In this document: positions 20,795 through 59,959 of the stretch, one piece after another
Layout of the letters: each line of letters begins with the position of its first letter
Position numbering within the stretch: position 1 is the stretch's first letter
Origin: Candidatus Babeliales bacterium
GTDB taxonomy: Bacteria; Babelota; Babeliae; Babelales; JANWKD01
Direction: 5' to 3'
Length of the DNA stretch: 64,000 nucleotides
Assembly (NCBI GenBank): GCA_963722255.1
Contig: CAVRJO010000002.1
Span: 232,169 to 296,168 of the forward strand
Made by a program: the position numbers and the translations under genes
The notes under the pieces: model-generated
What the model was told of the DNA's origin: nothing
What the model saw: the letters and a program-made list of their open reading frames with translations, nothing else
The model's database searches: none

Positions 20795-22183
20795 CTACTT
20801 TTTTTCTAATGCATAGGCAAGAGCTTTTTCAATATCTTTTGATTCTTTCGGCAAATTTTCACTAAGGCAAAGAGCACCGTCAGACACAATCCAATAATCA
20901 TCTTCAATACGTATACCGATAGATTCTTCAGGAATATAAATACCCGGCTCAATAGTAATGACATCACCCTACTTCAAAGGCTGAGAATAATCACCAACAT
21001 CATGAACATCTAATCCTAAAAAGTGCCCTATACCATGGATACAATATTCGCCATAGCCATGGTCCTCAATAAATTTTTTTGCTAAATGGTTAAGCGATTG
21101 ATCCGGTTCATTTTTATTTGAAAGCCACACGCCCGGTTTTGCCAAATTTGCAATATATGCCTGTGTTTGCAAAACAAGTTCATATACTTCTTTTTGGCGT
21201 TGCGTGAAACTACCTGAAACGGGATATGTTCTTGTTAGATCAGCGCAATAGGAATTATAGCGTGCACCAATATCAACAACTACTAAATCTCCCGAAACAA
21301 GAGTTCGCTTATTTTCCATATAGTGTAAAATTGTTGAATTTTTTCCGCTTGCAACAATAGATGAAAATGCAGCAGTTGCACCGCTAATAGTATAATGATA
21401 TTCAATAAGAGCCTGCAGCTCATTCTCTTTTTTACCCGGTTCCATCAACTGCATCGTCGCTTCTTGTGCATCAATAGTAATTTCAATTGCTTTATACAAC
21501 TGCTCAATTTCAAATTTACTCTTTTTACGACGCATTTGAGCTACAAGAGAAGAAATATCACACAGTGATTGTTTTAGCGAGGGAATAATTTCTACAATTC
21601 GCTGTAGAACGAAACGCTGTTCAATATAGTCACTGGCATTAGAAGGATTAAGCGTATAGAGTTTGCGTCCTTGTCCAATTGAATCTTCAATTAGTTTAAG
21701 CAACTGTTCATATTCACGATGTGTAAAAAAAGGATGGCATTGATAGCCAACACATTGATTACCAAGATATTTGATTTCATCAACGTGAAATTCTTGTGCT
21801 TTTTCTTCACTTGCTTCAATTGCATCCGCTACCCATTTTGCACGTTCTTTTCCAAAATTTGGAACAAATAACGTCGATCTACCAGTCTCAATATCAATCC
21901 ACAATGCCGCTGCAGGTTCTTGAAGGCCGGTATAATAAAAAAACGAGGAATCTTGTTTGAAAACATATCCATCTCGTTCAAAATTAGCAAATAAAACTAT
22001 TGTGCCTTGCGTGATTTCATATTTTTGTTTAACCAATGCTATAAGTTCAGTACGTCGCTCATGAAACATATAAAATTTATGATGAGGTGATGATGTCATT
22101 GAAAACTCCAAAAAGTAGGTTATAATCTTTGTAAGTATTCCATTCCGATTTCTTTTTTGCAAATTATCAAAACAATAAAACAA
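20795..22183 (-). pseudogene. pepP: Xaa-Pro aminopeptidase (M24B) interrupted by in-frame TAG; likely true start at 22099
   Basis: Track ORF 20969..22183 has DIGARYNSYCADLTRTYPV and HGIGHFLGLDVHD. After TAG (20969..20971) the same frame continues GDVITIEPGIYIPEESIGIRIEDDYWIVSDGALCLS...EKK*, carrying the last metal-ligand motifs. Confidence 0.8.
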
Positions 22184-22644
22184 TGAAAGGATCTTTCGTG
22201 AAATTAGTACGATTTAGCCTACTATCAATTTTTTTTGCAACTTCTCTCACAAGCCTTAAAGCTATGCAAGGTAAACCGCCATGCGACTTAAGCGCAGTAG
22301 CCAGACCTCAGGACTTAAAATTCCTCGTCGGAGTTAATGCCTATAGCCCTAATCTTTTAAAAATTGACGCTTTAATCAATGCTTTGCTTAAAAGTACATA
22401 TGAGGAAAAAATGGAAGAATTAGGAAAGTTTTCAAATACAGCTCTAGAAAATCTCGTATCAGCTATTGAACGAAATAAAAGTCTTCTTACAATAGATATT
22501 GAACGGAAAAAACATCTTTTTCAAGAAAAAGAAATCCAAGAAAAAATAGAAAATAGAAATCAACTCCGTTTTTTAGAGCTTTTCATACTCGAATATTTCA
22601 TACATCCAAACAAAGATGTCACAGAAGCTGAAAAATCCTTGTAA
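22183..22644 (+). CDS. secreted hypothetical protein, paralog of 22864..23448
   Basis: 153-aa ORF. Leader, then KAMQGKPPCDLSAVARP, a motif shared with the next gene. Confidence 0.6.
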   Translation: MKGSFVKLVRFSLLSIFFATSLTSLKAMQGKPPCDLSAVARPQDLKFLVGVNAYSPNLLKIDALINALLKSTYEEKMEELGKFSNTALENLVSAIERNKSLLTIDIERKKHLFQEKEIQEKIENRNQLRFLELFILEYFIHPNKDVTEAEKSL

Positions 22645-22671
22645 ACTACAGCAAAAAAGTTTATGTACTAC

Positions 22672-22702
22672 AGCCGGCAAGAAATTTCTTGCCGGCTTTT
22701 TT
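22672..22702 (+). terminator. Rho-independent terminator
   Basis: AGCCGGCAAGAAATTTCTTGCCGGCT followed by TTTTT. Confidence 0.8.
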
Positions 22703-22863
22703 ATGTTATACAATCGTATCTGATTTCAATTTTAAAATAATAGGCGTCCTTAAAAACAGTAATTAATATAATAATATTTGTAATTTATTGAACTAGAATA
22801 GAAATATATGCTATACTAAAAAATAATAAAATTATTTACCATTAATAATGTGAGGAGTTTATT

Positions 22864-57621: not shown

Positions 57622-58374
57622 ATGATGAAACATATGATACTAATTCTTCCACTAATAGTGCTCTTAAATATCAATGCATTGATTTATACCATGAATAAAG
57701 ATAACCAAACTATTAATCTTACGCAGTGCAATAATCCAGCAAAGCTCTACACAAATGCTGACGTTTTATATAATTTTTGTAAAGTTGAGAATTTAGACCT
57801 ATTGAAGTATGCATTAAATCACGGACTGTCTCCCAATACTGCACTTTTTCCCTTGTTAAAAACCACACTATCCAATGGCGCAATCGAATCTGCAAAGGAA
57901 TTAATAAAAAGAGGAGCTTATGTTAGTTCTTCACATATTCGTCAATCAATATCGTTATGCGATAATGAATTATTCAATAGCATATTCTCTGCTTGTGAAG
58001 ATTTTGATATTGAGGAAGAAAAAGAAGAGTACTGGCATACCTTATTACATGAAGCAGCAGCTAAAGGAACTCCCGAAATGGTCGAAAAATTCATCGAATT
58101 AGATTTTAATATCGAAGCACAAGATCGTCGTAATCGTACACCATTATTTGTAGCAGTGAAAGCGGGTAATATCCAAAAAATTAGAGTATTAATCGCCAAA
58201 GGCGCTAACCTTCATGCAGAAAATAAATCCGGTAAAACTATTTTAATGCTTGCCCAAAAATCACCGATAGCTGCAAAAAATATTAAGGTACGTATGCAAG
58301 GTCTATCCTATCTTAGTTGTGGTAAACAGTTGCATGTTGAAATAACTGACTATATTGCTAGTTTTTATAAGTAA
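57622..58374 (+). CDS. exported ankyrin-repeat protein with C-terminal QLHVEITDYIASFYK tail (family A, copy 3)
   Basis: 250-aa ORF. ANK units WHTLLHEAAAKGTPEMVEKFIELDFNIEAQDRRNRTPLFVAVKAGNIQKIRVLIAKGANLHAENKSGKTILMLA. Confidence 0.8.
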   Translation: MMKHMILILPLIVLLNINALIYTMNKDNQTINLTQCNNPAKLYTNADVLYNFCKVENLDLLKYALNHGLSPNTALFPLLKTTLSNGAIESAKELIKRGAYVSSSHIRQSISLCDNELFNSIFSACEDFDIEEEKEEYWHTLLHEAAAKGTPEMVEKFIELDFNIEAQDRRNRTPLFVAVKAGNIQKIRVLIAKGANLHAENKSGKTILMLAQKSPIAAKNIKVRMQGLSYLSCGKQLHVEITDYIASFYK

Positions 58375-58450
58375 AATTCGCTAAAATCACGATCTGTACA
58401 TATCAAAGGTAAAGTAAAAATTATCTTAATTTTCATTATGAAGGAAAAAG

Positions 58451-59425
58451 TTGCTTTTTAGCTTACGGCTTTTTTGTATTATAATTTTTTTGGTCCTTAC
58501 AAATTGGTTCACTATTTCAATCTCTGGAGAAAATCAAGCATATAAACGTGAAATCGCTCAGCGTGCGGATGGCTCATCAATTGTTTATTATTTACAGCTT
58601 CCAATTAATACAGATCAAAAATATCCAATGGTTGTACTTTGTGACGGTTCATATGAACCATTCGGAACAATTCAAAATGTATTGCCGCTCCATGATTTTT
58701 TTGCACAACTTCTTGAATCATGCAATGTTGGTTTACTAACCGTTGAAAAATGGGGAGTTGATGGGAATCATGTTGATAAATCACTATTTCACAGTCACAA
58801 TACACGCTCGCAACGAACTCAAGATCATCTTGATCTACTACAATTACTTGATCAAAAACATATACCCGGATGGAATGGAAAATATGTAGTAATTGGAGGC
58901 TCTGAAGGAGGCGATGTTATCACCAGACTTATGCTAGCGCGCGCAGAATCTATTATCGCTGCTATTAACTAAGCAGGCATTGGTGCTTGGGGTTGGCAAG
59001 ATCAGATATGGGCATATATTCAACACATGCGGAAGCATGGTTCATTAATGATGAAATTATATATATGGTGGAAAAGATTACCCAAAACGCGTCAAGAATA
59101 TGATCAGGTTTTTGCGCAAATCTTAAAAAATCCGACCCATACAAAATGGTGGTTTGGACAAACATATAAATATTGGGCCGATGCATTTTTACACAACATT
59201 ATGGACGATTTTTATGCGCTTAAGATCCCTTTGTTAATCATTATGGGAACGAGTGATCCCGGCCTTAAATCATGTGATGAGTTAATTGACCAAGCCTCAA
59301 AACACGATATGCCCATAACTTATTGGCGCATTGAGGGTATGAACCACACTATTAGCAAAGATCGACCTGATATTTTCCCCAAGTCTATAGAATGGTTACA
59401 TAAAATTTTGAGCAAGAAAACTTAG
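58451..59425 (+). pseudogene. alpha/beta-fold hydrolase interrupted by a single in-frame TAA
   Basis: ORFs 58451..58972 and 59027..59425 are in the same frame. GGSEGG (GxSxG nucleophile elbow) lies before the stop. After TAA (58970..58972) the frame reads on AGIGAWGWQDQ...LLIIMGTSDPG...IEGMNHTI (Asp and His regions). Confidence 0.65.
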
Positions 59426-59575
59426 GAATCTTATTTTTATACAATAATACTTAATGGCTTTAAATCTAATATTCAAACAAATACAAAAAGAAATATTATT
59501 GACATTTTATTAAGCTTTGTTATTATTTATAATAATTGAAATATTTCAATATTTTTTAATAATAAGAAATCTATT

Positions 59576-59959
59576 ATGAAGATTCATAACAAAATTCTAT
59601 TAATAATACCACTAATTATTGGCTTAGGTTTAGTTGGAAATAGCAATGGGATGCGCATCAAAGAGAAATTGTCTACATGGGATCCTGCAACCCGCCATCC
59701 TTATGCTCAACCCATAACAACTGATAAAGGTAATGGATATACATGGAAAATCCGAGAAACTTACAGAATTTGGGGCATAGGTGTATATACAGAGAAGGTG
59801 CTTTATCAACAAGTAAGAGGCAGCTATAATTATCCCTATCCGCCAGAAGAACTAGAAAGATCTGATTTTACACTATGCAAAAAGATAAAAGCTCTTTTAG
59901 GCGGCGCTGCACTCTTAACAGCTGGTGGGCTTTGGTATTGGTGGAAACATAAAAATTAG
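59576..59959 (+). CDS. small exported protein with C-terminal TM anchor (intact copy of a duplicated gene)
   Basis: 127-aa ORF. Leader, HPYAQPITTDKGNGYTWKIRETYRIWGIGVYTEKVLYQQ, and C-terminal LLGGAALLTAGGLWYWW. A degraded copy lies at 62825..63045. Confidence 0.65.
   Translation: MKIHNKILLIIPLIIGLGLVGNSNGMRIKEKLSTWDPATRHPYAQPITTDKGNGYTWKIRETYRIWGIGVYTEKVLYQQVRGSYNYPYPPEELERSDFTLCKKIKALLGGAALLTAGGLWYWWKHKN

Follow-up and report, generated by a model that had tools for sequence, protein, structure and literature searches.

In Bacteroidetes, glutamine occupies the first mature position (+1) of signal peptidase I sites and is converted to pyroglutamate, a lineage-restricted pattern known as the Q-rule (PMC5837995, PMC10653852). 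Here we describe a comparable preference, for methionine, in predicted signal peptides encoded by a 64,000-nucleotide stretch of a Candidatus Babeliales genome (contig CAVRJO010000002.1, positions 232,169 to 296,168; referred to as the window) and by further loci of the same genome and of its relatives. Both patterns consist of one residue preferred at +1 of standard Sec/signal peptidase I signal peptides, both are restricted to a lineage and extend over many exported proteins, and both set the chemistry of the mature N-terminus. They differ in the residue, Met instead of Gln, and in their reach, with ~21-24% of the signal peptides affected here as opposed to most of them in Bacteroidetes. Unlike in the Q-rule, the Met of Babeliales is concentrated in accessory, effector-like proteins and is coupled to Asp, Glu, Asn or Gln at +2, and we identified no modifying enzyme comparable to glutaminyl cyclase.

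Other precedents concern the fate of such an N-terminus or the make-up of such a leader. Listeriolysin O is a Sec-secreted protein acting in the host cytosol in an N-end-rule-dependent manner. For another Sec-secreted toxin, anthrax lethal factor, the N-terminal residue determines cytosolic potency via host N-degron pathways (PMC2518864); as would be the case here, the residue made by cleavage is what these pathways meet, altering cytosolic lifetime or potency. Those are single, experimentally studied proteins, whereas the present case is a proteome-wide sequence bias from which we infer a link to host degradation. Conserved signal peptides joined to variable mature parts are found in the phytoplasma SVM signal (PF12113) and in Borrelia lipoprotein families. 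Similarly, the 54360 gene of the window and a gene in locus L012 share upstream region, leader and first mature codons while their mature parts are unrelated, but this is one such pair only and the leaders with a junction Met are otherwise unrelated in sequence.

A reading of the window made from sequence only had drawn attention to twelve proteins whose N-terminal leader runs into a Met followed by a polar or acidic residue. All twelve N-termini translate as it had quoted them, with the junction Met at residues 20-28 (Table 1; genes are named by the coordinate at which they start), and the twelve proteins represent nine families. In each leader, residues 2-10 include K/R (and/or H), the net charge is not negative and an uncharged stretch of 13-23 residues is present. 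The best nine-residue window reaches a mean hydropathy of 2.3-3.6 in 11 of the 12 and of 1.7 in 54556. Most of the first ATGs are preceded at normal distance by a GGAG/AGGA-type Shine-Dalgarno (SD) site. Position -1 is Ala in six leaders, Ser, Thr, Cys and Gly in one each and Pro in two (28669 and 34495), so that 10/12 have A/S/T/C/G. In table order, position -3 is L, I, N, T, L, F, M, S, I, T, I and S, nine of which lie within {A,V,S,T,I,L,G,C}.

On these features the leaders are canonical Sec/signal peptidase I-type signal peptides with Met exactly at the predicted +1, and the earlier description of them as atypical has to be given up. They share with the standard type a basic n-region, a hydrophobic core, a small -1, an aliphatic or small -3, tolerance of bulky residues at -2, a length of 19-27 residues and an acidic or polar early mature region. 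They deviate in the +1 Met, which is otherwise rare (0/20 in E. coli, 1/42 in ankyrin proteins of other lineages), and in a -3 that is mostly Ile/Leu rather than Ala/Val, matching the AT-rich composition of the window (GC ~34%). A bulky residue at -2 is normal for signal peptidase I, and Leu and Ile are tolerated at -3. The bulky residues at the junction mostly sit at -2, and the remark that -3 is often unusually large holds for Phe and Met (2/12) but not for Leu and Ile. Among 25 cases defined in the genome by a regular expression, -3 was I, L, T, A or S in 20; their -1 composition is no test, because the search itself confined -1 to A/G/S/C/T/P. The idea that the Met marks a cleavage junction fits ten of the twelve leaders and falters at 28669 and 34495, in which cleavage directly before Met is doubtful because of the Pro at -1.

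Other export signals were considered and rejected. A lipoprotein signal (signal peptidase II) does not apply, as the lipobox [LVI]-[ASTVI]-[GAS]-C is absent and +1 is Met and not Cys; Cys is found at -1 in 56761 and three other genes of the genome, all without a lipobox, and the genuine lipobox-like leaders of the window (37551, 60013) lack the Met. None of the twelve n-regions contains the RR of the Tat motif (S/T-R-R-x-F-L-K). In type IV prepilins or pseudopilins the order would be different, since here the hydrophobic segment precedes the Met and polar or acidic sequence follows it. A Pfam-A scan of eight Met-class proteins (E up to 0.01) gave no match to the SVM signal PF12113. A motif at the DNA level was likewise rejected, as synonymous positions vary around the ATG (GCT/GCA/GCG ATG GAA/GAG/CAA/AAT).

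We then asked how often the Met occurs at this position across the genome. The sample comprised the window and five further 20-kb stretches (L008-L012, L015), together ~170 kb with 176 genes, which were reached via identical copies of the insertion sequence (IS) transposase and the group II intron reverse transcriptase of the window. Signal peptides were called with an in-house heuristic based on charge, hydropathy, start codon and SD site, and cleavage sites with a crude in-house -3/-1 rule that is blind to Met. Signal peptides were called in 68 of the 176 genes (39%), in line with Chromulinavorax destructans, in which 44% of the proteins and 78% of the ankyrin proteins carry one (PMC6561590). 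At a background Met frequency of 1.8%, the pattern [AGSCT]M at the hydrophobic/polar boundary was found in 21/68 compared to 3.9 expected (binomial p 1e-10), and [AGSCT]M[DENQ] in 16/68 compared to 1.07 expected (binomial p 1e-14). The recurrence proposed for the window thus extends over the sampled part of the genome. Met was also the commonest residue at the predicted +1 (16/68), as opposed to 2/68 for Gln, which is found instead at +2 after Met. Among 120 signal peptides of Babeliales, 25 had Met at the predicted +1, while each other position from -8 to +10 had 0-7. Judged by predicted cleavage sites, the +1 Met affects about a fifth to a quarter (21-24%) of export signal peptides.

The junction Met is found in 12 of the window's 25 signal-peptide-like N-termini. 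Among the 13 without it are YidC, two GH1 glycosidases, several orphans and two lipoprotein-like leaders. Paralogy is insufficient to explain the recurrence: there are nine families in the window and unrelated cases at five other places of the genome and in other Babeliales. Unrelated proteins of the genome gave, among others, the junctions LYA-MDDS, AFA-MDGA (an ankyrin protein), AYA-MQLE, ISA-MDNI, ICA-MQHD, MQA-MEKR, LYA-MKHR, LYS-MRVR and IIC-MESS (the hyphen marks the junction).

The organism of the window belongs to the Babeliales (Dependentiae/TM6) based on its YidC, which is 67% identical to that of a metagenome-assembled 'Candidatus Babeliales bacterium' (L005) and has more than 100 graded homologues, some labelled Babeliales or Dependentiae by their sources. 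The relatives were sampled as ~150 kb of YidC neighbourhoods from seven of them; this sample holds no whole genomes and is biased to housekeeping surroundings. A YidC scan of a genome collection (species representatives, which do not include the genome of the window itself) gave one relative only, and a YidC-alignment scan of metagenomes a single 4.8-kb locus. Junction Mets were present at YidC identities of 86% (L019: AHA-MVPI, LHT-MEML), 67% (L005: SAS-MWLW, LVG-MEKP, LNS-MEAP, SYP-MWQK), 52% (L022: LMA-MNKR, LWS-MEKR and VFP-MKRN in three ankyrin proteins, and LIA-MQPQ) and 44% (L026: VYS-MQQL, SFS-MNKL). The mostly housekeeping neighbourhoods L020, L024 and L025 had none or ambiguous ones only.

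Two controls were run outside the lineage. In 200 kb of E. coli K-12, a small control that is not AT-rich, the same pipeline called 20 signal peptides, none with +1 Met, and correctly placed the known cleavage sites of SurA, DegP and ThiB. A profile search with 12 Babeliales ankyrin proteins gave generic ankyrin proteins of many phyla, which served as a negative control: of 42 with a signal peptide, one had +1 Met, and A, G, V, S, T and D predominated. The difference between Babeliales (25/120) and the combined controls (1/62) was significant (Fisher p 2e-4) and was sharper for signal-peptide-bearing ankyrin proteins, of which 12/15 in Babeliales and 1/41 in other lineages had the junction Met (p 1e-8). 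Measured against chance and these controls, the pattern is non-random and specific to the lineage, as had been suggested. Full-text searches of a literature collection turned up no account of Met being preferred behind the signal peptides of Dependentiae/TM6, which is not proof of absence.

Conservation was assessed in seven families anchored at the junction. One consists of four ankyrin paralogues and another of three small paralogues from L011; the others are 22183/22864, the 54360 pair, the 28669 protein and its orthologue in L019, the 52885 protein together with P0124 and P0129, and an L005 pair. Family-averaged identity was 0.86 at +1, while the flanks averaged 0.27 and peaked at 0.50, at -1. 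In the first 45 columns of the ankyrin family, the junction Met and the start Met are essentially the sole invariant residues. The orthologue of the 28669 protein in L019 has an altered c-region and retains the Met (...TLHT-MEMLT). Homologues of the 52885 protein read LYA-MEQK (P0124/P0125) and, at 32% identity, LSA-MQDT (P0129). A search with the 54556 ankyrin protein found only three homologues. Taken together, the alignments suggest that the junction Met is maintained by selection.

The residue behind the Met is constrained as well. It was D/E/N/Q in 20 of the 25 cases, compared to 21% and 29% at +1 and +2 of other signal peptides (p 8e-8 and 7e-6). Small residues that permit removal of Met by methionine aminopeptidase (MetAP) were found in 0/25 as opposed to ~25% (p 0.002-0.004), and a bulky hydrophobic residue in 1/25. 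True start codons of non-exported proteins of the same genome were followed by D/E/N/Q in 11/64 (17%; p 3e-7), with Lys dominant. Met-Asp/Glu/Asn/Gln is the substrate class of the eukaryotic acetyltransferase NatB and makes up ~20% of human proteins (PMC8553619, PMC11735805). The predicted mature N-termini resemble this class in their second residue and in the avoidance of both MetAP-permissive residues and Met-hydrophobic degrons; unlike NatB-class N-termini, they would arise post-translationally by bacterial cleavage and not on a eukaryotic ribosome.

The Met is also distributed unevenly among exported proteins. On functional classes assigned by hand from the Pfam lists of the loci and a Pfam scan, conventional enzyme or housekeeping domains were found in 2/26 Met-class proteins, both with Pro at -1, compared to 15/43 other signal-peptide proteins (p 0.02), and eukaryote-like repeat domains (ankyrin, BTB, propeller) in 7/26 compared to 3/43 (p 0.03). 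The remaining Met-class proteins are orphans. Seen from the other side, the junction Met was present in only 2 of the 17 exported proteins that have a conventional enzyme domain or a housekeeping domain. The proposal that the motif marks an effector repertoire agrees with this distribution.

As housekeeping genes of the window show frameshift-type breaks, the leaders were checked against independent assemblies. The window comprises a block of ribosomal protein, EF-Tu and EF-G genes, MurC, YidC and RecR, followed by a long stretch of lineage-specific genes. In 1-14700, 24413-25803 and 47699-50312, the genes for EF-Tu, EF-G, ribosomal proteins, MurC and UvrA are each broken into adjacent open reading frames (ORFs); MurC, for instance, consists of 352 + 80 residues as compared to 462 in L005, and EF-G is likewise split on L024, another Babeliales contig from the same European Nucleotide Archive (ENA) sample. 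Most likely these are indel errors of long-read assembly and not pseudogenes. Proteins of the window recur in sample ERZ25039473 (ENA contigs) and in ERR10755947 (Logan short-read contigs). The 5' segments of nine of the twelve leader genes are base-for-base identical in the independent short-read contigs L001 and L004, and the remaining three lie outside the fetched loci. L002 (ENA contig_28041, 11000-20590) was excluded as a chimeric assembly; it matches the window up to the 54556 gene and continues with 50% GC DNA with unrelated genes.

Considering these data, we lean towards a +1 Met rule that is under selection, specific to the lineage and applied to the secreted accessory proteome. Its purpose would be a host-compatible N-terminus or a sorting tag, and its origin possibly lies in the capture of start codons. 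Signal peptidase I would cut directly before the Met in a large subset of Sec signal peptides, namely those of ankyrin, BTB/propeller and orphan proteins, leaving mature proteins that begin with Met-[Asp/Glu/Asn/Gln], while housekeeping exported enzymes would stand outside the rule. Cleavage at the bond before Met is what we infer from the predicted sites. Of the 126 ankyrin proteins of Babela massiliensis, 79 have a signal peptide and are believed to be delivered to the amoebal cytoplasm; type II was the sole secretion system detected in this species (PMC4378268), and a similar picture holds for C. destructans (PMC6561590). Since Dependentiae are reported to use Sec and type II secretion, the N-terminus made by signal peptidase would be what the host encounters. 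Removal of Met takes place only if a small residue follows, Met-hydrophobic is a degron and Asp/Glu termini are arginylated (PMC8037982). An exported protein starting with Met-[D/E/N/Q] would accordingly keep its Met, present no Arg/N-degron to the host cytosol and resemble a NatB-class start, the Met acting as a 'cap' ahead of the usual acidic early mature region to give a stable, host-like N-terminus. Of the nine possible single-base changes of ATG, seven would yield Ile, Leu, Lys or Arg according to the genetic code, all of which would be destabilising by the N-degron rules. We prefer this purpose, closely followed in plausibility by an N-terminal tag for a second secretion step. The Met may have originated as a start codon, in genes that once had no leader, and been kept afterwards. 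A bolder version, which we offer tentatively as possible and not as probable, is an N-terminal code spanning the proteome of Babeliales, and perhaps of Dependentiae as a whole, in which signal peptidase I exposes Met-[Asp/Glu/Asn/Gln] on host-destined proteins, either as a eukaryote-like, MetAP-resistant, non-degron N-terminus (NatB-class, possibly acetylated by the host) or for sorting at release.

Several observations weigh against a selected +1 rule of this kind. Ala, Ser, Gly, Thr or Val would also be stabilising at the N-terminus, and avoidance of N-degrons alone therefore does not explain the specificity for Met; that Met in particular is needed suggests that it is recognised (as a sorting tag or by a modifying enzyme) or that it has historical reasons (a captured start codon). 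The action of NatB is mainly co-translational. The Met is present despite Pro at -1 in 28669, 34495, L005 987, L015 8213 and L022 16887, where signal peptidase I should not cut before it because of that Pro. Certain paralogues have lost the Met: Ile stands in its place in L005 3630, the paralogue of which has Met, and the protein encoded by 56129-56761 has a paralogue at 55335-56072 whose signal peptide lacks it (...NTQA-ENSS). In the 52885 protein a Skp1/BTB-like domain starts a few residues after the Met, as it would behind a captured start codon. The functional-class tests are modest (p 0.02-0.03, hand-assigned classes), cleavage sites rest on an in-house heuristic and not on a trained predictor such as SignalP or on experimental N-termini, and the sample consists of ~170 kb of one genome and ~150 kb of YidC neighbourhoods.

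The strongest alternative is that the Met is an evolutionary relic with no function of its own today. It would be the original start codon of genes, possibly taken from a host, that had no leader and acquired a signal peptide when they were extended at the 5' end or joined to a 5' module already present. Such a history would fit the 54360 gene and L012 18464-19141, which are otherwise dissimilar and have SD site, leader and ATG GAA AAA in common at ~79% DNA identity (window 54292-54400 on the minus strand and L012 19060-19180 on the minus strand, the latter ~18 kb past the window end; MINYK...A-MEK). Their similarity ends directly after the Met codon region, and the pair could be due to a 5' module that is transferable or to rapid divergence of the mature part. 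It would also fit the paralogues 22183 and 22864, which keep the Met and are alike only over their first ~40 residues, the Skp1/BTB-like domain beginning ~7 residues after the Met in the 52885 protein, the occurrence of Met behind a cleavage-disfavouring Pro, and the mostly young, lineage-restricted genes that make up the Met class. A neutral Met, however, should decay like its neighbours, whereas its identity is 0.86 compared to 0.27 in the flanks of the seven families and it is retained down to 32% identity. A relic would require neither A/S/C/G/T at -1 in most cases nor a spike confined to +1. D/E/N/Q is found behind the Met in 76-80%, as opposed to 17% behind real start codons. Module sharing was seen for one pair only: an all-against-all blastn of 5' regions gave no second convincing case, and leader cassettes were rejected as a general mechanism. 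As a complete account a functionless relic is unlikely in our view, yet it may be right on the origin of the Met even if selection acts on it at present.

We rate as more doubtful still that the N-terminal Met-[acidic/amide] serves purely as a sorting tag, read inside the bacterium to separate proteins that cross the outer membrane (by type II secretion or vesicles) from periplasmic ones. Such a tag would account for Met specifically, and the conservation and exact +1 placement as well as its presence on effector-like proteins and absence from housekeeping exported enzymes are what one would expect. The lipoprotein +2 rule is a precedent for N-terminal sorting after signal-peptide cleavage, and it also speaks for a tag that type II is the one secretion system reported in Babela massiliensis. 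On the other hand, type II substrates are recognised in their folded state, and no linear N-terminal signal is known for type II secretion. The Met is missing from some signal-peptide proteins of ankyrin or eukaryote-like type (L008 4189, L005 3630 and a SET-domain protein in L031), and no candidate reader protein was identified.

The sequence-only reading had also offered the internal ATG as a second start that would give a leaderless cytosolic isoform beside the exported one. The conserved ATG and the A-rich codons behind it would suit dual initiation, but an SD-like site (score >=3, -4 to -16) was found at 0/25 junction ATGs, compared to 18/25 first starts and 7% of random internal Met codons. 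Moreover, the junction Met and real starts differ in the residue that follows, the codons preceding the ATG are held to the -3/-1 pattern of signal peptidase I, and ankyrin/BTB host-interaction proteins have no obvious use within the bacterium. We therefore dropped this idea as very improbable. Hardly credible at all is an artefact or chance: AT-rich DNA does translate into hydrophobic, Lys-rich peptides, the window has assembly-type frameshifts and several of the twelve are paralogues, but a mis-called start with an untranslated leader is contradicted by SD sites preceding the first ATG, full n-h-c organisation with 10-25 uncharged residues, conservation in orthologues and short-read identity of 9/12 leaders, and chance recurrence is at odds with p values of 1e-10 to 1e-14, nine independent families in the window, many unrelated cases elsewhere and clean controls.

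Dependentiae are widespread and almost uncultured parasites of protists that export up to ~40% of their proteome via Sec, with no type III/IV system reported. A signal peptide followed by Met-[D/E/N/Q], being ~10-fold enriched, conserved and class-specific, could flag candidate effectors in their metagenome-assembled genomes. Should the proposed N-terminal code prove true, sequence alone could serve to predict the effectors of an uncultured phylum. The code would then join the Q-rule as the second lineage-specific +1 rule, and no other would have been tied to an effector repertoire before. A Met rule would also mean that +1 residue rules are not confined to Bacteroidetes. Were the Met a retained start codon after all, it would still record how cytosolic genes acquired by an intracellular parasite come to encode secreted proteins. 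The rule is testable by N-terminomics in three cultured systems (Babela, Vermiphilus and Chromulinavorax).

Table 1. Leaders with a junction Met and other elements of the window (junctions are given with a hyphen before the Met; cleavage there is predicted).
Coordinates	Strand	Feature	Protein	Junction	Remark
22183..22266	+	signal peptide + junction Met	153-aa orphan	...TSLKA-MQGKPPCD	no Pfam family above threshold
22864..22932	+	signal peptide + junction Met	194-aa orphan	...VSIEA-MEGQPP	GGAG-type SD site 8 nt 5' of first ATG
28669..28734	+	leader + junction Met	295-aa orphan	...KNYP-METLT	identical in Logan contig L001
34495..34557	+	leader + Met	GH1 glycosidase paralogue	...LYTEP-MQSE	Pfam Glyco_hydro_1
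40248..40313	+	signal peptide + junction Met	1629-aa orphan	...FQLFA-MEKELG	no Pfam family
52814..52885	-	signal peptide + junction Met	800-aa BTB/Skp1-like + beta-propeller protein	...SVFYA-MEKQEE	
54292..54360	-	signal peptide + junction Met	215-aa orphan	...NSMNA-MEKKK	
54556..54621	+	signal peptide + junction Met	250-aa ankyrin protein	...TSSYA-MEQNN	
56693..56761	-	signal peptide + junction Met	210-223-aa protein	...FSILC-MNQSP	weak ankyrin match
56945..57004	+	signal peptide + junction Met	217-aa ankyrin protein	...FQTFS-MNNDT	
57622..57693	+	signal peptide + junction Met	250-aa ankyrin protein	...ALIYT-MNKDN	
59576..59653	+	signal peptide + junction Met	127-aa orphan	...GNSNG-MRIKEK	
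16309..18047	-	group II intron	436-aa reverse transcriptase/maturase (RVT_1 + GIIM)		Rfam D1-D4 domains at 17759-18047
23497..24323	-	second, degraded IS	HTH_Tnp_4/DDE_Tnp_4-like		split ORFs
45241..46532	+	toxin-antitoxin or abortive-infection pair	AbiEi-like/AbiEii (nucleotidyltransferase)		among accessory genes
63142..63954	+	transposase	DDE_Tnp_1, 270 aa		at least 5 identical genome copies (L008-L012)

Two of the large secreted proteins have features of their own. The 800-aa protein (50483-52885, minus strand) consists of two Skp1/BTB-like modules followed by a PQQ-type beta-propeller, and only a handful of metagenome proteins are full-length homologues; it is a candidate mimic of host ubiquitin-ligase adaptors. 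The 1629-aa protein (40248-45137, plus strand) has a C-terminal Cys...His arrangement ('ECGYHALFNA ... THWVAVE') resembling papain-like or deubiquitinase folds, and its C-terminal 395 residues gave no sequence match among solved structures.

Three tandem GH1 glycosidase paralogues (31188-36159, plus strand) each have a signal peptide, and two of them a second hydrophobic segment before the catalytic domain. The two paralogues other than 34495 lack the junction Met. The array is syntenic after YidC-RecR in L005 and L019 and is an unusual cargo for an organism thought to be without metabolism. Other Babeliales encode a signal-peptide-bearing small GNAT acetyltransferase (L022 6012-6515) and a SET-domain protein of the same kind (L031 5439-5942), and the genome of the window encodes a membrane-anchored MsrA-MsrB (methionine sulfoxide reductase) fusion (L008 587-2224). 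These three are not linked to the Met rule by evidence and are leads for an enzyme acting on exported or host proteins.

The group II intron is probably mobile, since an identical copy of its reverse transcriptase occurs elsewhere in the genome (L015). A 231-nt direct repeat of 94% identity links 62815-63045 with 59659-59889; the copy at 62815-63045 corresponds to a truncated mature part of the 59576 gene without leader and adjoins the IS element.

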